64,000 nt of DNA from contig CAJQJY010000012.1 of the NCBI GenBank assembly GCA_905478765.1, positions 66,540 through 130,539 on the forward strand, given 5' to 3'. Source of the DNA: an uncultured Flavobacteriales bacterium (GTDB taxonomy: Bacteria; Bacteroidota; Bacteroidia; Flavobacteriales; BACL11). Below, in pieces: positions 54,411 through 62,329 of the stretch. Below the pieces are notes generated by a model, which did no database searches, was not told where the DNA came from, and saw only the letters and a program-made list of their open reading frames with translations. Each line of letters begins with the position of its first letter. Within the stretch, counting starts at the first letter, position 1. The position numbers were made by a program, and so were the translations under genes.

Positions 54411-54414
54411 GTTG

Positions 54415-54453
54415 CAAAGATAGAGAAAATATGCGCTTTATTTTGTATATTTG
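54415..54453. promoter_or_regulatory. Back-to-back -7 elements for thiL (54415-54422, -) and suf (54446-54453, +)
   Basis: TATCTTTG on the minus strand and TATATTTG on the plus strand. Confidence 0.65.
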
Positions 54454-54458
54454 CCGCC

Positions 54459-54481
54459 CTAACGAGAGCTATTCTAAATAA
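54459..54481. promoter_or_regulatory. Putative Fur/PerR-like operator abutting the suf start codon
   Basis: Right half ATTCTAAATAA (54471-54481); left half degenerate (5/11). Confidence 0.35.
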
Positions 54482-54805
54482 ATGATTAAAATAAGTAATT
54501 CTGCAAAAGAAAGATTACTTTATCTACTAGATAAAGACACTGAAAAAAAACAATTTGTAAGAGTTGGTGTTGAAAGTGGAGGGTGTTCGGGTTTAAACTA
54601 TAAATTAGACTTTGATAACTCAAAAAATGATGAAGATGAACTAATTGAAAACAATGACATCAAACTGTTAATCAATAAAAAAAGTTTTTTATACTTAGTT
54701 GGCACTACTTTAGAATTTTCTGACGGACTAAACGGAAAAGGGTTTGTATTCAACAACCCAAACGCAAGCAGAACCTGTGGTTGTGGGGAAAGTTTTTCTT
54801 TATAA
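54482..54805 (+). CDS. sufA: A-type Fe-S carrier (HesB/IscA/SufA)
   Basis: GGCSG and NPNASRTCGCGESF. Confidence 0.95.
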   Translation: MIKISNSAKERLLYLLDKDTEKKQFVRVGVESGGCSGLNYKLDFDNSKNDEDELIENNDIKLLINKKSFLYLVGTTLEFSDGLNGKGFVFNNPNASRTCGCGESFSL

Positions 54806-54817
54806 TAATTTACAAAA

Positions 54818-56275
54818 ATGAGTGAGCAAAAAAAACAGTCGGAAGACGAGTTATTAGAAAAGGTAACATCAACCGAATATAAATACGGATTTACAACAGA
54901 CATTGAATCAGACACCATCCCTAAGGGACTTTCAGAAGATGTGGTGCGCATTATTTCTGCAAAGAAAAATGAACCGGAATGGATGTTGGAATACCGATTA
55001 AAAGCATACAAATCTTGGTTGGAAATGGAAGAACCTGATTGGGCAAACATTAACTATACCAAACCTAATTATCAGGATGTAATCTATTATTCAGCACCTA
55101 AACAAAAACCTGTTTTGGACAGTTTAGATGATTTAGATCCTGAAATGAAAAAGACTTTTGATAAGTTAGGAATTTCAATTGATGAACAAAAGAAATTAGC
55201 AAATGTAGCTGTAGATATCGTAATGGATTCTGTTTCTGTAGCAAATACATTTAAAGATACACTTGCTGAAAAAGGAATTATTTTCTGCCCAATATCAGAT
55301 GCAATTCAAGAGCACCCAGAGTTAGTAAAGAAATATTTAGGAACAGTTGTCCCTGCTAGAGATAATTTCTTTTCTGCACTAAATGCAGCCGTATTTTCTG
55401 ATGGTTCCTTTTGCTACATTCCAAAAGGAATAAAATGCCCAATGGAACTTTCTACTTATTTCAGAATTAATGAGGCAGGAACTGGGCAATTTGAAAGAAC
55501 ATTATTAATTGCCGATGAAGGTTCTCAAGTAAGTTATTTGGAAGGATGTACAGCTCCAATGCGAGATGAAAATCAATTGCATGCTGCAGTAGTAGAATTA
55601 ATCGCTATGGATGAAGCAGATATAAAATATTCTACTGTACAAAACTGGTACCCAGGAAATGCAGAGGGTGTTGGTGGAGTTTTCAACTTTGTAACTAAAA
55701 GGGGAATTTGTCATAAAAACGCAAAAATCTCTTGGACACAAGTAGAAACAGGTTCAGCAGTAACTTGGAAGTATCCTTCTTGTATTTTAAAAGGAGATAA
55801 CTCAATTGGAGAATTTTTCTCAGTTGCAGTAACTAACAATAGACAACAAGCAGATACTGGAACAAAAATGATTCACTTAGGGAAAAACACTAAGAGTACT
55901 ATTATTGCAAAAGGAATATCAGCAGGAAAAAGTGATGGAAATTATAGAGGATTAGTTAAGATTTCAAAGGGCGCTACTAACTCTAGAAATTTTTCTCAAT
56001 GTGATTCTTTACTTATGGGAGATAAATGTGGGTCGCACACTTTCCCTTACATTGAAGTAAAAAATAATTCTTCCAAAGTAGAGCATGAAGCAACTACCTC
56101 AAAAATTGGAGAAGATCAAATATTCTATTGCAACCAAAGAGGAATAGGAACAGAAGCAGCAATTGCCTTAATTGTAAATGGGTATTGCAAGGATGTACTT
56201 AACCAATTACCAATGGAATTTGCAGTAGAAGCACAAAAATTATTAGAAATCAGCCTTGAAGGTTCAGTAGGTTAA
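54818..56275 (+). CDS. sufB: Fe-S assembly scaffold SufB
   Basis: [42 protein letters not shown]. Confidence 0.98.
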
Positions 56276-56285
56276 AAACAAGAAA

Positions 56286-57047
56286 ATGTTACAGATAAAA
56301 GACTTAAAAGCAGGAATTGAAGACAATCAAATCCTAAAAGGAATAAACTTAGAAGTGAAGGCAGGGGAAATCCATGCTATCATGGGACCTAACGGTTCTG
56401 GGAAAAGTACGCTATCGGCAGTAATTGCTGGTAATGAAGACTATGAAGTTGAAGGCGGAAACATTACTTTTAATGGAAAGGATTTATTGGAATTAGATCC
56501 AGAGGAAAGAGCACATAATGGTGTATTTCTTTCTTTCCAATATCCTGTTGAAATTCCTGGAATTTCAGTTTCTAACTTTATCAAAACTTCAATTACAGAA
56601 AAAAGGAAAGCACAAGGTTTAGAGCCTATTCTAACTAAGGATTTGTTAAAAATGATGCGAGAAAAGATGGAGCTTTTAAGCATCAAGCAAGGTTACTTAT
56701 CGCGTAACATGAATGAAGGATTCTCTGGTGGAGAAAAGAAAAGAAATGAGATTTTTCAGATGGCAATGTTAGAACCTAAATTAGCTATTTTGGACGAGAC
56801 TGATTCTGGGTTGGATATTGATGCGCTTAGAATTGTTGCTAATGGAGTAAACAAACTAAGAAGTGAGGATAATGCAACTGTTATTATTACGCATTACCAA
56901 AGATTATTGGACTATATTGTTCCTGACTTTGTACATGTATTATACAATGGGAGAATCGTTAAGTCGGGAGGAGCAGAATTAGCACATGAGTTAGAAGAAA
57001 AAGGGTATGATTGGGTAACTAAAGAAGAAGATAAAAAGTGGGCTTAA
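56286..57047 (+). CDS. sufC: Fe-S assembly ATPase SufC
   Basis: GPNGSGKST, FQYPVEIPG, FSGGEKKRNE, LDETDSGLDID. Confidence 0.98.
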   Translation: MLQIKDLKAGIEDNQILKGINLEVKAGEIHAIMGPNGSGKSTLSAVIAGNEDYEVEGGNITFNGKDLLELDPEERAHNGVFLSFQYPVEIPGISVSNFIKTSITEKRKAQGLEPILTKDLLKMMREKMELLSIKQGYLSRNMNEGFSGGEKKRNEIFQMAMLEPKLAILDETDSGLDIDALRIVANGVNKLRSEDNATVIITHYQRLLDYIVPDFVHVLYNGRIVKSGGAELAHELEEKGYDWVTKEEDKKWA

Positions 57048-58258
57048 TTGAAAATTTAAAATCGTATTCAGAGGGGGTGCAGATTTCTACTGAAAAGAAA
57101 GAGCTTTTTACTTCTTTCATGTCAAAAGGATTTCCAACAACCAAAGATGAGGAGTGGAAATACACTTCACTTAAAAAGATAGTCACTAAAGATTATAATA
57201 TTGAAAATACAGGAGAAATTATTGATTCCTCTACAGTTGAAAAATATTCCTTAGGATTTGATAATAGAATTATTTTTTCTGATGGAAAACTAATCGGAAG
57301 TCCAAATATCAAAGGAGTAAGTGTTAATGGTTTTTCTAATTTTGGAAGCAATACAACTGATAGTATTTTACAACTGAATAAAGCCCTTGCTCAAAATGGA
57401 TTTACTATTTCAGTGGATAAAAACACTGTGCTAGAAAGTCCTATTGAAATTTTGTTTTTTTCAACTACAGAAAATAATTTTTCTCAATACAGAAACTTAA
57501 TTTCTGTTGGAGATAATACTGAGGTAAAGTTTGTAGAAAGAATTCAAGCCCTGAATGATTCTACTTCAATGGTAAATAATTTTACTCAGATAAATTGCGC
57601 TAAAAACACAAAAGTAGAATACAACAAAATACAAAACAACACGCCGGAATCTAGATTGATTGATACAGTAAATGTATATCAAGAACAAGATTCTACTTGT
57701 GAAATTAACACACTTATTTTTGGAGGCTCATTCACCAGAAACAACTTAAATTTTGAACAAAACGGCTCTAATTGCGAAAGCAATATGAATGGTATTTCAA
57801 TATTGGATGACAATCAGCTTGCTGACAATCATACTTTTGTGGATCATAAAAGCGCACACTGTAGAAGTAATGAGATGTACAAAGGAGTTTATTTAGGGCA
57901 TTCCAAAGGAGTGTTTAACGGTAAAATTATGGTGCGTCCTGATGCACAAAAAATTGATGCATTCCAATCTAACAACAACTTATTATTAAGTGATAATTCT
58001 ACTATTGACAGCAAACCACAATTAGAGATTTATGCTGATGATGTAAAGTGTAGTCATGGTTGTACTATTGGTCAATTGGATGAAAACGCACTTTTCTACA
58101 TGAGAAGTAGAGGGATTGGTATTGAAGAAGCAAAGGCAGTTTTAACCTACGCATTTGCATCTGAAGCAATTGAAAATATCTCTGTAGAAGAAGTGAAATT
58201 ATTAGCTCAAAAATTATTGGCCCATAAACTAAATGTTGATTTAGATTTCAGTTTATAG
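57038..58258 (+). CDS. sufD: Fe-S assembly protein SufD
   Basis: GFPT.KDEEWKYT, FNGKI.V, KPQLEIYADDVKCSHG. GTG start overlaps the sufC end. Confidence 0.96.
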   Translation: MGLIENLKSYSEGVQISTEKKELFTSFMSKGFPTTKDEEWKYTSLKKIVTKDYNIENTGEIIDSSTVEKYSLGFDNRIIFSDGKLIGSPNIKGVSVNGFSNFGSNTTDSILQLNKALAQNGFTISVDKNTVLESPIEILFFSTTENNFSQYRNLISVGDNTEVKFVERIQALNDSTSMVNNFTQINCAKNTKVEYNKIQNNTPESRLIDTVNVYQEQDSTCEINTLIFGGSFTRNNLNFEQNGSNCESNMNGISILDDNQLADNHTFVDHKSAHCRSNEMYKGVYLGHSKGVFNGKIMVRPDAQKIDAFQSNNNLLLSDNSTIDSKPQLEIYADDVKCSHGCTIGQLDENALFYMRSRGIGIEEAKAVLTYAFASEAIENISVEEVKLLAQKLLAHKLNVDLDFSL

Positions 58259-59473
58259 ATGTTAGACATTAACAAAATACGAGCGCAATTCCCTATCCTA
58301 AACCGTAAGGTAAATGGAAAGGATTTGGTATATTTTGACAATGGAGCTACAACACAAAAACCACAATCTGTAATTGATGCAGAAGCTACTTACTATGCAA
58401 ATGAAAACTCCAATGTACACAGAGGAGTTCATTTTTTAAGCGGATTAGCAACTGATAAATTTGAAGAAACAAGAAATACTGTTCAAGCATTTATTGGCGC
58501 AAAACACAATCACGAAATCATTTTTACCAAAGGAACAACTGACTCTATTAACTTAGTTGCAAATGGTTTCAGAACCTTACTAAACAAAGGGGATGAAATT
58601 ATTATTTCGGAAATGGAGCACCATTCCAACATAGTGCCTTGGCAAATGTGTTGCGAAATTTCAGGCGCAACTTTAAAGGTAATTCCACTTTTAGATAATG
58701 GAAGTTTGGATATGCATGAATTTGACAACCTTCTTTCTAAAAACACAAAATTAGTATCAGTTAGTCATATTTCCAATGCTCTGGGGACAGTAAATGATAT
58801 TGAAACTATCATTGCAAAAGCACACAATTTTAATGCAAAAGTAATGATTGATGGAGCTCAAGCAGCCTCTCATGTTGCTTTGGATATGCAAAAACTGGAT
58901 GCTGATTTCTATTGCTTTTCAGCACATAAATTGTTCGGACCAACAGGAGTTGGAGTTTTGTATGGGAAAGAAGAAATTTTAAATGTACTTCCTCCTTACC
59001 AAGGTGGTGGAGAAATGATCAAAGAAGTTAGTTTTGCAAAAACTACTTACGCTTGTTTGCCTCATAAATTTGAAGCAGGAACGCCTAATATTTCTGGAGT
59101 AATTGCTTTTAAACAAGCCATTGATTTTATTACCGATCTAGAAATTGCAGAAATTACAAAATATGAGGAAGAACTATTAAAATATGCAACTGCTGAAGTA
59201 TTAAAAATTGAGGGACTAAAAATTTATGGGACAGCTGCACATAAATCAGGTATTATTTCATTTAATATTGAAGGATTACATCCTTACGATATAGGTGTAA
59301 TTGTAGATAAAATGGGAGTTGCTATCCGAACAGGACACCATTGTACGCAACCAATTATGGACAGGTTTAACATTCCTGGAACGGCAAGAATTTCATTGTC
59401 CGTTTATAATACTAAACAAGAAATTGATGTTTGTGTAAAAGCAATTAAAAAGGCAAAATTGATGTTATCATAA
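58259..59473 (+). CDS. sufS: Cysteine desulfurase SufS
   Basis: YFDNGATTQKP, EHHSN, DGAQ, SAHK, EAGTP, RTGHHC. Confidence 0.97.
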   Translation: MLDINKIRAQFPILNRKVNGKDLVYFDNGATTQKPQSVIDAEATYYANENSNVHRGVHFLSGLATDKFEETRNTVQAFIGAKHNHEIIFTKGTTDSINLVANGFRTLLNKGDEIIISEMEHHSNIVPWQMCCEISGATLKVIPLLDNGSLDMHEFDNLLSKNTKLVSVSHISNALGTVNDIETIIAKAHNFNAKVMIDGAQAASHVALDMQKLDADFYCFSAHKLFGPTGVGVLYGKEEILNVLPPYQGGGEMIKEVSFAKTTYACLPHKFEAGTPNISGVIAFKQAIDFITDLEIAEITKYEEELLKYATAEVLKIEGLKIYGTAAHKSGIISFNIEGLHPYDIGVIVDKMGVAIRTGHHCTQPIMDRFNIPGTARISLSVYNTKQEIDVCVKAIKKAKLMLS

Positions 59474-59889
59474 TGAGTACTATAAAAGAAATACAAACTG
59501 AAATTACTGAAGATTTTGCAATATTTGACGATTGGATGCAGAAGTACGAATACCTTATTGATTTAGGAAAAGAACTCTCCCCAATTGATGAACAATACAA
59601 AACAGAAGACAACTTAATAAAAGGTTGCCAAAGTAGAGTTTGGCTACATGCAGAATACACTAAAGGAAAGATTATTTATACAGCAGATAGTGATGCTATT
59701 ATGACTAGGGGTATTATAGCTGTTTTAATAAATGTTCTTTCGGGACAATCTCCATCAGAAATTGCAAATGCAAAACTTGACTTTATAAACAAAATAGGAT
59801 TGAAAGAACAACTCTCTCCTACTAGAGCAAACGGACTAGTATCAATGATAAAACAAATGAAAATTTACGCATTAGCTTTCAATAACTAA
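59473..59889 (+). CDS. sufE: Sulfur acceptor SufE
   Basis: IKGCQSRVW, ADSDA, LSPTRANG. Confidence 0.96.
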   Translation: MSTIKEIQTEITEDFAIFDDWMQKYEYLIDLGKELSPIDEQYKTEDNLIKGCQSRVWLHAEYTKGKIIYTADSDAIMTRGIIAVLINVLSGQSPSEIANAKLDFINKIGLKEQLSPTRANGLVSMIKQMKIYALAFNN

Positions 59890-59891
59890 TT

Positions 59892-60215
59892 ATGAAAACA
59901 GAAGAAGAATTACAAAAAATTGGAGAAGAAGTTATAGAGGTGATCTGTGAAATTTATGACCCTGAGATACCTGTAAACATTTATGCACTTGGGCTTATTT
60001 ATGATGTAGAAGTTAGTGAAGATTGTGATGTTAAAATTACCATGACACTTACTACTCCTAATTGCCCAGTTGCCGAAACACTTCCTGTTGAAGTAGAGGA
60101 AAGAGTAAAAACTTTACCTTCAGTTAAAGATGCAAAAGTAGAAATAACTTTTGAGCCAACTTGGACAAAAGAAATGATGAGTGAAGAAGCAAAACTAGAA
60201 CTCGGAATGTTATAA
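59892..60215 (+). CDS. sufT: SufT / DUF59 Fe-S maturation factor
   Basis: DPEIPVNIY.LGLIY, MTLTTPNCP, FEPTW..EMMSEEAKL.LG. Confidence 0.93.
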   Translation: MKTEEELQKIGEEVIEVICEIYDPEIPVNIYALGLIYDVEVSEDCDVKITMTLTTPNCPVAETLPVEVEERVKTLPSVKDAKVEITFEPTWTKEMMSEEAKLELGML

Positions 60216-60218
60216 AAC

Positions 60219-60725
60219 ATGAGTGATGAAATTGTAAATAGAGTAGCAAATAGTGCCTTAATCGCTATTGATTTAGCAGACTATGCTCCTAGTCAATCTA
60301 TTGCTGTTTTAGATGTAAAGGATTTTCTTTTTCAAGAGATTATCCTAAAGGAAAAAGAATTCAGAGCCAATTTAAAAGAATTTGATTTTTCCATCTACCA
60401 AGACAAAATTATAGCAATAAATTGTAGCTCAGATGCCATTGTGCCTATGTGGGCTTTTATGCTAGTTACTTCTTACTTGAAGGGTATTGCTAGCAAAATC
60501 CATTTTGGAAAAAAAGAGGATGTATTTCAGCAAATATTCACTGCTAATATTGATGCTATTGATAGCACAGAATTTGAAAGTAAAAAAGTGATTGTAAAAG
60601 GTTGTGGACAAGTTCCTTTAAGCGCTTCACTTTATATGGCAATTACCAAAAAATTGCAAGATACCGTAAGTAGTCTAATGTTTGGGGAGGCTTGTTCGGC
60701 TGTTCCCGTTCTTAAAAATAAATAA
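60219..60725 (+). CDS. DUF2480 family protein
   Basis: EIVNRVANS.L..IDL, CSSDAIVPMWA, KGC, SLMFGEACS.VP. Confidence 0.85.
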   Translation: MSDEIVNRVANSALIAIDLADYAPSQSIAVLDVKDFLFQEIILKEKEFRANLKEFDFSIYQDKIIAINCSSDAIVPMWAFMLVTSYLKGIASKIHFGKKEDVFQQIFTANIDAIDSTEFESKKVIVKGCGQVPLSASLYMAITKKLQDTVSSLMFGEACSAVPVLKNK

Positions 60726-61465
60726 TGAATAAAAATATTCAACACATAAACACTCAGATTGCTGAGCACAAAAGAGATGTAGTAAATCATCCGTTATACA
60801 GCCAACTTAACACCATTGAGGATGTTCAAAAACTAATGGAAGTTCATGTATATGCTGTTTGGGACTTTATGTCCTTGTTAAAAGGATTACAAATTGAATT
60901 GACTAGCACTACTCTTCCTTGGAAACCTATTGGGGACAATAAAATAAGAAGGCTGATTAACTCTATTGTGCTGGAAGAGGAAAGTGATGTTGATGCAGAT
61001 GGGAACCCTGCCTCACACTATGAAATGTACTTGGATGCAATGAAAGAATGTGGTGCCAATACTACAGAAATTGAAAACTTTGTAGATAGCATTACTGATA
61101 TTAACTTGCCTAAAGTTAATACCGCTATTGATTCCTTTTTAGCTACCACTTTTGATGTATTAAAAACTGGAGAAGCCCATAAAATTGCATCTGCTTTTAC
61201 TTTTGGTCGTGAGGATTTAATACCAGATATGTTTACCGCAATTGTAAACGATTTAAGTAAAGAACATACTATAGATAAGTTTGTGTATTACCTTGAAAGG
61301 CACATAGAGTTAGATGGTGGAGAGCACGGCCCATTAGCCCTGCAACTTATTGCTGATTTATGTGGGGATGACAGACAAAAATGGAAAGAAGTAGAACAAA
61401 CTGCTAAGGATTGTTTAGTGGCCCGTAAAGCATTATGGGATGTAGTTTTAAGTAACTTAAATTAA
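60725..61465 (+). CDS. DUF3050 family protein, probable heme-oxygenase-like diiron enzyme
   Basis: HPLY, HVYAVWDFMSLLK, RRLIN.IVLEEESD, SHYEMY, FGREDLIP, YLERHIELDGGEHGP. Confidence 0.85.
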   Translation: MNKNIQHINTQIAEHKRDVVNHPLYSQLNTIEDVQKLMEVHVYAVWDFMSLLKGLQIELTSTTLPWKPIGDNKIRRLINSIVLEEESDVDADGNPASHYEMYLDAMKECGANTTEIENFVDSITDINLPKVNTAIDSFLATTFDVLKTGEAHKIASAFTFGREDLIPDMFTAIVNDLSKEHTIDKFVYYLERHIELDGGEHGPLALQLIADLCGDDRQKWKEVEQTAKDCLVARKALWDVVLSNLN

Positions 61466-61469
61466 ACTT

Positions 61470-62213
61470 TTACTTCCCCTCCTCATAAGTTTTAATAGAA
61501 TGCTCTACTGACTGATTGATTTGATTCAATTCTGTAGCTGTAAAATTACGGTATTCCCCAACAGGAATGTCTAGTTTAATATTCATAATTCTTACCCTTT
61601 TCAGCTTCCTAACATCATATTCTAAGTACTCACACATTCTTCTAATTTGGCGATTCAAACCTTGGGTAAGTATAATCTTGAATTTCTTTTTATCTGTTTG
61701 TTTTACAAAACATTTACGAGTAAAGGTATCCAAAATTGGCACTCCATTTCCCATAGCTTCAATAAATTCTTTTGTGATTGGCTTGCTAACGGTTACTTCA
61801 TATTCCTTCTCATGATTGTTTCTGGCGCGCAAAATCTTATTTACAATATCCCCATCATTCGTTAGAAAAATTAATCCTTCTGAAGGTTTGTCTAATCTTC
61901 CAATAGGGAAAATACGAGTAGGATAATTAATATAATCGATAATATTATTCTTTTCTCGCATCTGGTCAGTAGTACAAACAATACCCACTGGCTTATTGAA
62001 AGCAATATAAACCATCTTCTTCTTTTTAGCTCTGTGCACCACTTTTCCGTTTACACTTACCTGATCTTCATTAGAAACTTTTGTTCCCATTAAAGGAATT
62101 TCCCCATTTATTTTTACTCTTCCTTGGTCAATTAATTTATCAGCAGCACGCCTTGAGCAATACCCTATTTCTGATAAGAATTTATTGATTCTTGTAAGTT
62201 TATTTTCTTCCAT
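61470..62213 (-). CDS. rluF: 23S rRNA pseudouridine synthase (RluF/RsuA family)
   Basis: S4 domain RINKFLS..GYCSRR.AD; GRLD; GLNRQIRRMC. Confidence 0.9.
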   Translation of the reverse strand: MEENKLTRINKFLSEIGYCSRRAADKLIDQGRVKINGEIPLMGTKVSNEDQVSVNGKVVHRAKKKKMVYIAFNKPVGIVCTTDQMREKNNIIDYINYPTRIFPIGRLDKPSEGLIFLTNDGDIVNKILRARNNHEKEYEVTVSKPITKEFIEAMGNGVPILDTFTRKCFVKQTDKKKFKIILTQGLNRQIRRMCEYLEYDVRKLKRVRIMNIKLDIPVGEYRNFTATELNQINQSVEHSIKTYEEGK

Positions 62214-62329
62214 AATAAAATACAAAAATACATTAAATTATTGTTAACATCTCTTTTTAAAAATAACTAAATTCAAATGAGATATCCCTTATTGATTTTT
62301 TAGATTTGCCTAAACAAAAAAATAAACTA

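Follow-up and report, generated by a model that had tools for sequence, protein, structure and literature searches.

To our knowledge, the SUF pathway of iron-sulfur (Fe-S) cluster assembly is still poorly defined in its iron donor, its electron source and its late hand-over steps, and what is known of it comes almost wholly from Proteobacteria, Firmicutes and plastids. Its described accessories (SufT, SufE/SufU and the A-type carriers) are small cysteine-bearing helpers. In the window analysed here, a stretch of 64,000 nucleotides from the genome of an uncultured Flavobacteriales bacterium (contig CAJQJY010000012.1 of assembly GCA_905478765.1), a suf operon continues past sufE and sufT into genes for a DUF2480 protein and a DUF3050 protein. 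For the first of these, a literature search found nothing published on DUF2480, PF10652 or IPR018914. The second belongs to a family already predicted to fall among the heme-oxygenase-like diiron oxidases (HDOs), a group with known metal lability; one HDO, UndA, was first described with one iron and later shown to be di-iron.

HamA, from the fragin pathway of Burkholderia cenocepacia, acts on carrier-protein-tethered valine; its crystal structure (PDB 9VWB) was reported with a single iron, and 2-oxoglutarate dependence was proposed (PMC12522199). Pfam assigns MgoB to DUF3050 (PMC3298696), and PvfA is its counterpart in the pvf cluster, with a function still unknown in 2023 (PMC10194917). The prediction that DUF3050 proteins are diiron HDOs was published already in 2015 (PMC4520260); a 2026 review of the HDOs mentions none of HamA, PvfA and DUF3050.

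What is new at this locus is that DUF2480 emerges as a candidate factor of Fe-S biogenesis, DUF3050 being a known HDO-fold family. We consider it reasonably probable that DUF2480 is a phylum-wide, hitherto unrecognised factor of this kind with a fold of its own. For the locus as a whole, the account that we favour, and to which we give slightly better than an even chance, is a nine-gene unit in which DUF2480, a single-domain alpha/beta protein specific to Bacteroidota, serves Fe-S biogenesis and DUF3050 is an HDO-fold passenger.

The distribution of DUF2480 was followed in 41 relatives of the host genome and in a 201-genome sample of the phylum Bacteroidota. The gene was found in 34 of the 41 relatives, by coordinates no more than 2.4 kb from sufE in 30 of these 34, and in 107 of the 201 phylum-sample genomes (45/50 in the class Bacteroidia); streamlined genomes of 1.0–1.6 Mb still keep it, and the family was confined to Bacteroidota in the samples examined. 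Among 16 Flavobacteriales loci inspected, DUF2480 stands directly after sufT in 12, is separated by a one-gene insertion in 1 and is unlinked in 3, and the sufT linkage was seen in 11 of the 14 DUF2480-bearing Flavobacteriales families. An Owenweeksia-like genome (G039) carries an HMG-CoA synthase gene (L124:510-1967) inserted between sufT and DUF2480 within the suf operon. Loci of other classes were linked to Fe-S genes in 10 of 11 cases, by way of an IscS/NifS-type desulfurase, an A-type carrier or a sufBCDS-nfu-A-type run: in Rhodothermus marinus and four to five loci like it, the gene before DUF2480 encodes an IscS/NifS-type cysteine desulfurase; in the Balneolales arrangement (Balneola, Cyclonatronum) DUF2480 follows the A-type carrier that ends a sufBCDS-nfu-carrier run; and in Chloroherpetonaceae a short, 98-aa form lies no more than three genes from IscS and an A-type carrier. 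DUF2480 is associated with Fe-S biogenesis genes, and the linkage is conserved across distant lineages. In three Rhodothermus-like loci (L030, L036 and L037) the gene after DUF2480, on the same strand, encodes a membrane protein of 360–395 aa with a C-terminal DUF2914.

Some observations weigh against a role of DUF2480 in Fe-S biogenesis. All 9 DUF2480 loci of other Bacteroidia orders (e.g. Chitinophagales, Cyclobacteriaceae) are unlinked to any Fe-S gene, as is the gene in 3 Flavobacteriales families; the neighbours in these nine loci are SurA-like, TsaB-like or transglycosylase genes. Two cysteines, moreover, do not by themselves define a cluster site. The nine unlinked loci, together with the tight packing that is the rule in the host genome, would fit an explanation in which both DUF2480 and DUF3050 are passengers and the position of DUF2480 is inherited gene order without functional meaning. 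However, three different Fe-S partners flank DUF2480 in separate classes (sufT; an A-type carrier with nfu; an IscS/NifS-type desulfurase), which inheritance of one arrangement is hard-pressed to explain, and the cysteines C129 and C159 of DUF2480 are invariant. We regard two passengers as decidedly unlikely and return to DUF2480 as a probable protein of Fe-S biogenesis.

The DUF2480 protein matches PF10652 over its full length (218.2 bits against a cut-off of 25), with residues 3–166 covering profile positions 1–164 of 165. Invariant in 34 full-length sequences are D32, L37, E45, F48, W78, C129, G156, E157, C159, S160 and P163. An earlier reading of the window, made from the sequence only, had pointed to conserved-looking cysteines in the motifs CSSDA, KGC and EACS; this holds for KGC (C129) and EACS (C159), whereas 31 of the 34 sequences have the CSSDA cysteine (C69), which the short forms lack. 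The confident AlphaFold2 model (predicted local distance difference test, pLDDT, 90.4) has an alternating beta-alpha fold, with C129 and C159 placed right after strands 123–127 and 152–155. Comparison with solved structures gave no match by sequence, by profile (best E 0.21) or by fold (best E 0.01, template modelling score, TM, <0.3), and no sequence or fold similarity to SufT, SufE/SufU or A-type carriers was seen. DUF2480 holds operon slots like those of these SUF accessories (after sufT, an A-type carrier or a cysteine desulfurase), but is unlike them, or any solved structure, in sequence and fold. A search of 1.84 billion representative proteins returned 1316 clusters; the best 150 of the 1316 are all single-domain proteins of about 120–250 aa, and no fusion that would name a partner was found among these 150.

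The short forms measure 98–102 aa (L039:7143-7439 in Chloroherpetonaceae, L040:6799-7107 in an unclassified Bacteroidota metagenome-assembled genome, MAG). They retain just the N-terminal part and the C-terminal half bearing C129 and C159, the middle beta-alpha-beta-alpha segment being gone; IscS and an A-type carrier are encoded nearby.

We read DUF2480 as a probable, hitherto undescribed accessory of Fe-S biogenesis that works through thiols, and its mechanism is one that we infer. The protein would carry either a persulfide or a labile Fe-S cluster on the invariant Cys129/Cys159, with Glu157 adjacent. It would act at the hand-over end of the pathway together with SufT and the A-type carriers or, alternatively, directly with an IscS-type desulfurase in those lineages that have this neighbour.

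In the streamlined marine host genome (1.6 Mb, completeness 98.6%), DUF2480 and DUF3050 are both contiguous and co-directional with the suf genes; close homologues carry labels of uncultured marine Flavobacteriales or Cryomorphaceae. Nine co-directional, closely spaced genes occupy 54482–61465 (+) of the window in the order A-type carrier-sufB-sufC-sufD-sufS-sufE-sufT-DUF2480-DUF3050; they are listed here with the features at their end.

54482..54805 (+), A-type Fe-S carrier (SufA/IscA/ErpA type), with which the operon opens; PF01521 (E 1.5e-19), TIGR00049 (118 bits, cut-off 58.8)
54818..56275 (+), sufB; NF008773 (894.8 bits, cut-off 717)
56286..57047 (+), sufC; TIGR01978 (368 bits, cut-off 212.8)
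57038..58258 (+), sufD; TIGR01981 (273.6 bits, cut-off 222)
58259..59473 (+), sufS, cysteine desulfurase; TIGR01979 (578 bits, cut-off 475)
59473..59889 (+), sufE, sulfur acceptor, overlapping sufS by 1 nt (TAATG); PF02657 (E 5.7e-48)
59892..60215 (+), sufT (DUF59 / FeS_assembly_P); PF01883 (E 1.5e-17), TIGR02945 (142.1 bits, cut-off 143.4)
60219..60725 (+), DUF2480 protein, 168 aa; PF10652 (E 7.9e-65)
60725..61465 (+), DUF3050 protein, 246 aa; PF11251 (E 7.3e-93), PF14518 (E 1e-7)
61422..61439 (+), weak terminator-like hairpin within the last DUF3050 codons; pattern scan, consensus match only
61470..62225 (-), rluF, 23S rRNA pseudouridine synthase, convergent; NF007784 (329.7 bits, cut-off 318)

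The sequence-only reading had described sufT, DUF2480 and DUF3050 as following sufE with gaps of 2–3 nt and a TAATG overlap. These coordinates and the family assignments were confirmed (sufE/sufT gap 2 nt, sufT/DUF2480 gap 3 nt, DUF2480/DUF3050 overlap of 1 nt with TAATG at 60723–60727), and all motifs that it quoted (LEEESD, SHY, GRED and RHIELDGGEH besides the cysteine motifs) are present. An AT-rich intergenic stretch of 71 nt (54411–54481) lies upstream of the A-type carrier gene. The convergent rluF gene begins 4 nt past the DUF3050 stop and marks the end of the unit. A consensus scan of the + strand from sufE to the DUF3050 start found no promoter-like or terminator-like site, and in the pattern scan the hairpin at 61422–61439 is the sole + strand terminator-like site downstream of sufS. 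Spacing and the lack of internal signals suggest that the nine genes, from the A-type carrier through DUF3050, form one transcription unit. The window as a whole is 94% coding, with a median same-strand gap of 6 nt and gaps of 5 nt or less in 21 of 42 same-strand pairs, as computed from crude open reading frame calls. Since tight junctions are ordinary in the host genome, close spacing argues for co-transcription and not for a functional tie, and a functional case must rest on conserved gene order.

The DUF3050 protein matches PF11251 over its full length (311 bits against a cut-off of 22.2) and HamA with E 8.3e-51, at 34–38% identity over the full length. Its AlphaFold2 model, also confident (pLDDT 91.3, predicted TM score 0.89), was compared with solved structures in Foldseek: HamA was the best match (TM 0.85), followed by CADD (0.74/0.83), with UndA at about 0.70–0.73 and HrmI at 0.73–0.75; FlcD, PolF, TenA and PqqC were further matches. 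By this model, DUF3050 is a protein of the heme-oxygenase-like (HDO) metalloenzyme fold. Six ligands (E85, H98, E163, H193, D197 and H201) are invariant in 32 Bacteroidota DUF3050 sequences and in HamA and, judging from the crystal description of HamA, should cluster in space. The sequence-only reading was thus right to call DUF3050 HDO-like, with a ligand set similar to that of CADD; the E/H/E/H-x3-D-x3-H set is complete. H22, H41, R162, R192, R234 and W238 are likewise invariant in the same 32 sequences and HamA; by hand count on the alignment, H41, R162 and R234 correspond to HamA H40, R167 and R240, which have been assigned to binding of the 2-oxoglutarate co-substrate, R240A being inactive (PMC12522199).

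Two comparisons frame the likely activity. CADD, UndA, HrmI, FlcD and PolF share the seven-helix fold (TM 0.68–0.75) and the E / H / E / H-x3-D-x3-H pattern with DUF3050, but are only 11–18% identical to it, and the sole crystal structure from the DUF3050 family was reported with one iron (PMC12522199). HamA, PvfA and MgoB belong to the same Pfam family (PF11251), with metal ligands and proposed co-substrate residues all conserved; they are located in clusters of nonribosomal peptide synthetase (NRPS) type (PMC12522199, PMC3298696), whereas the DUF3050 gene of the host is the last of a suf operon without such partners. DUF3050 is most likely a dinuclear Fe (or Mn/Fe), O2-dependent oxygenase and kin of HamA, PvfA and MgoB.

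Two side observations concern the family. According to the HamA paper, Glu184 is an iron ligand and Glu206 takes the place of the usual histidine (PMC12522199). In the deposited HamA sequence a hand count puts the canonical GRE glutamate at E168, and H207 comes right after E206; either the numbering or the reading as mono-iron may merit a check. One relative (G035 contig 5, L005:5486-6331) encodes a second DUF3050 paralogue, a divergent one with about 20% identity. Its LEEESD/SHY segment and RHIELD..H motif are gone, and with them all metal ligands; it adjoins a ZIP-like transporter gene, with a superoxide dismutase gene near (both named by reading only).

The linkage of DUF3050 to suf was followed in the same samples. 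DUF3050 occurs in 23 relatives and stands after DUF2480 in 19 of the 23, namely 16 of the host's own family and G032, G036 and the Owenweeksia-like G039; the extension of the operon is therefore not unique to the host genome, and the same arrangement recurs in others. In G022 (same family), G025, G027 and G035, DUF3050 is located away from DUF2480, in G022 beside a gene that reads as a Rieske-type oxygenase (CxH/CxxH motifs by eye). Three genomes of the host's own genus (G004, G013 and G014) keep sufE-sufT-DUF2480 and have no DUF3050; in G014 (96% complete) a convergent topology-modulation gene and rluF come after DUF2480. Across the phylum sample DUF3050 was found in 20 of the 201 genomes, and 0 of the 19 others has it next to DUF2480. 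Among 80 named DUF3050 loci, 2 are suf-linked, both from the window's family, and the linkage is absent in 77. Beyond the host's family and G032, G036 and G039, the linkage is not conserved, so that DUF3050 lacks the association with Fe-S genes across distant lineages that DUF2480 has.

Elsewhere, DUF3050 follows an acyl-CoA dehydrogenase gene in 26 loci, mostly in Flavobacterium, or stands after map, a class II tRNA synthetase gene, msrB (Hymenobacter, Pontibacter) or hemH (Maribacter). trpB and trpA are normally adjacent and coupled; in a Polaribacter MAG (L049:7768-10553) and in Flavobacteriales UBA6772 (L088), DUF3050 interrupts the pair, with a PALP-family gene (trpB-like) on one side and trpA on the other. 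In Flavobacterium and a few other genera (L002:7593-10032; clusters c3, c6 and c8) a convergent gene set is found downstream of DUF3050, at a distance of one to four genes. It encodes a small 2Fe-2S ferredoxin and a NifU-like protein, both named from Pfam, and an Mrp/ApbC-like ATPase, named by reading only; its position may reflect no more than synteny at genus level. When the neighbours at 78 loci were clustered, such genus-level synteny was all that appeared, with no conserved partner outside suf. A tree of 86 DUF3050 sequences requires at least three changes of linkage, with its deep branches unresolved, and does not require more than one origin; given these branches, no claim of independent recruitment of DUF3050 to suf is made. 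Two sequences titled Thalassovita (L047, Roseobacteraceae) and Lentimonas (L064, Verrucomicrobiota) nest among Flavobacteriales sequences, the latter with Flavobacterium-type neighbours; both contigs are probably mis-binned.

The sequence-only reading had proposed an undescribed SUF accessory arm made up of both proteins. In such an arm the dimetal site of DUF3050 would donate or buffer iron, consume O2 or repair oxidised clusters, and the product would be passed through DUF2480/SufT, a role analogous to that of di-iron RIC/YtfE. Counter-evidence to passenger status of DUF3050 comes from gene order: DUF2480 followed by DUF3050 recurs in four Flavobacteriales families and survives the HMG-CoA synthase insertion upstream in the Owenweeksia-like genome, which hints that selection keeps the pair together. 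The TAATG overlap of the two genes, a ligand set that is typical of HDOs, with their labile metal, and the iron- or redox-flavoured character of several other DUF3050 neighbourhoods (hemH, msrB, and the ferredoxin/NifU-like/Mrp-like set near it in Flavobacterium) point in the same direction. Against an accessory arm stand the absent linkage in 19/19 other phylum-sample genomes and 77/80 named loci, the dispensability of DUF3050 within the genus and a tree compatible with a single origin of the suf linkage. In addition, the invariant substrate/co-substrate pocket (H22, H41, R162, R192, R234, W238), common to the enzyme HamA, points to catalysis rather than metal storage. We judge the arm unlikely; of the earlier proposal, the part that concerns DUF2480 fits well, with its three Fe-S gene arrangements, while the part that concerns DUF3050 is not supported, its linkage being found in a few Flavobacteriales lineages only.

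A working pair, in which DUF3050 as a labile dimetal HDO delivers iron to the SUF hand-over, repairs it or protects it from O2, also seems rather unlikely to us; if true, it would give the heme-oxygenase-like superfamily a non-catalytic or repair role that has never been shown for it. We take DUF3050 instead to be, most likely, a passenger enzyme that depends on iron and oxygen and is co-expressed with suf, and not a component of the SUF machine. It would have been appended behind DUF2480 in the window's lineage and so would be made whenever suf is expressed.

A further idea was that DUF3050 is a self-sacrificing p-aminobenzoate synthase of CADD type, replacing PabB/PabC; in its favour, CADD is the second-best structural match (TM 0.74/0.83). 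Identity to CADD is only 15–16%, however, and the single chorismate-binding enzyme of the host genome (G000 contig 1, L121:1494-2801) has PabB as its best family (TIGR00553, 322 bits against a cut-off of 328). A PabB-sized enzyme is present in all relatives, with or without DUF3050. Because a PabB-type gene is present regardless of DUF3050, a stand-in for missing PabB/PabC was rejected, and p-aminobenzoate synthesis by DUF3050 is scarcely credible. A TrpE- or MenF-sized copy was not found in the host genome or its family, while larger Flavobacteriales genomes have two or three, which suggests that the tryptophan and isochorismate branches were lost in the host family.

The closeness to HamA (34–38% identity over the full length, pocket residues conserved) would likewise fit a tailoring oxygenase of HamA/PvfA type that modifies an amino acid bound to a carrier protein, as part of secondary metabolism. 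The 1.6-Mb host genome, though, has no match anywhere to PF11583 (AurF-type N-oxygenase) or PF00668 (NRPS condensation domain), and the neighbours of the gene are suf and rluF. NRPS tailoring was rejected for this genome, and we hold a secondary-metabolite role to be very improbable.

The locus calls for caution: passengers gather at the ends of operons in streamlined genomes, and a striking metal-ligand motif beside suf is insufficient to assign a role. For the DUF3050 family it means that relatives of HamA and PvfA are widespread in Bacteroidota as a stand-alone gene without an NRPS partner. For Fe-S assembly in Bacteroidota, DUF2480 is a concrete candidate for a lineage-specific helper of the SUF/ISC pathways, because it adjoins three different kinds of Fe-S assembly gene, and one that is cheap to test.

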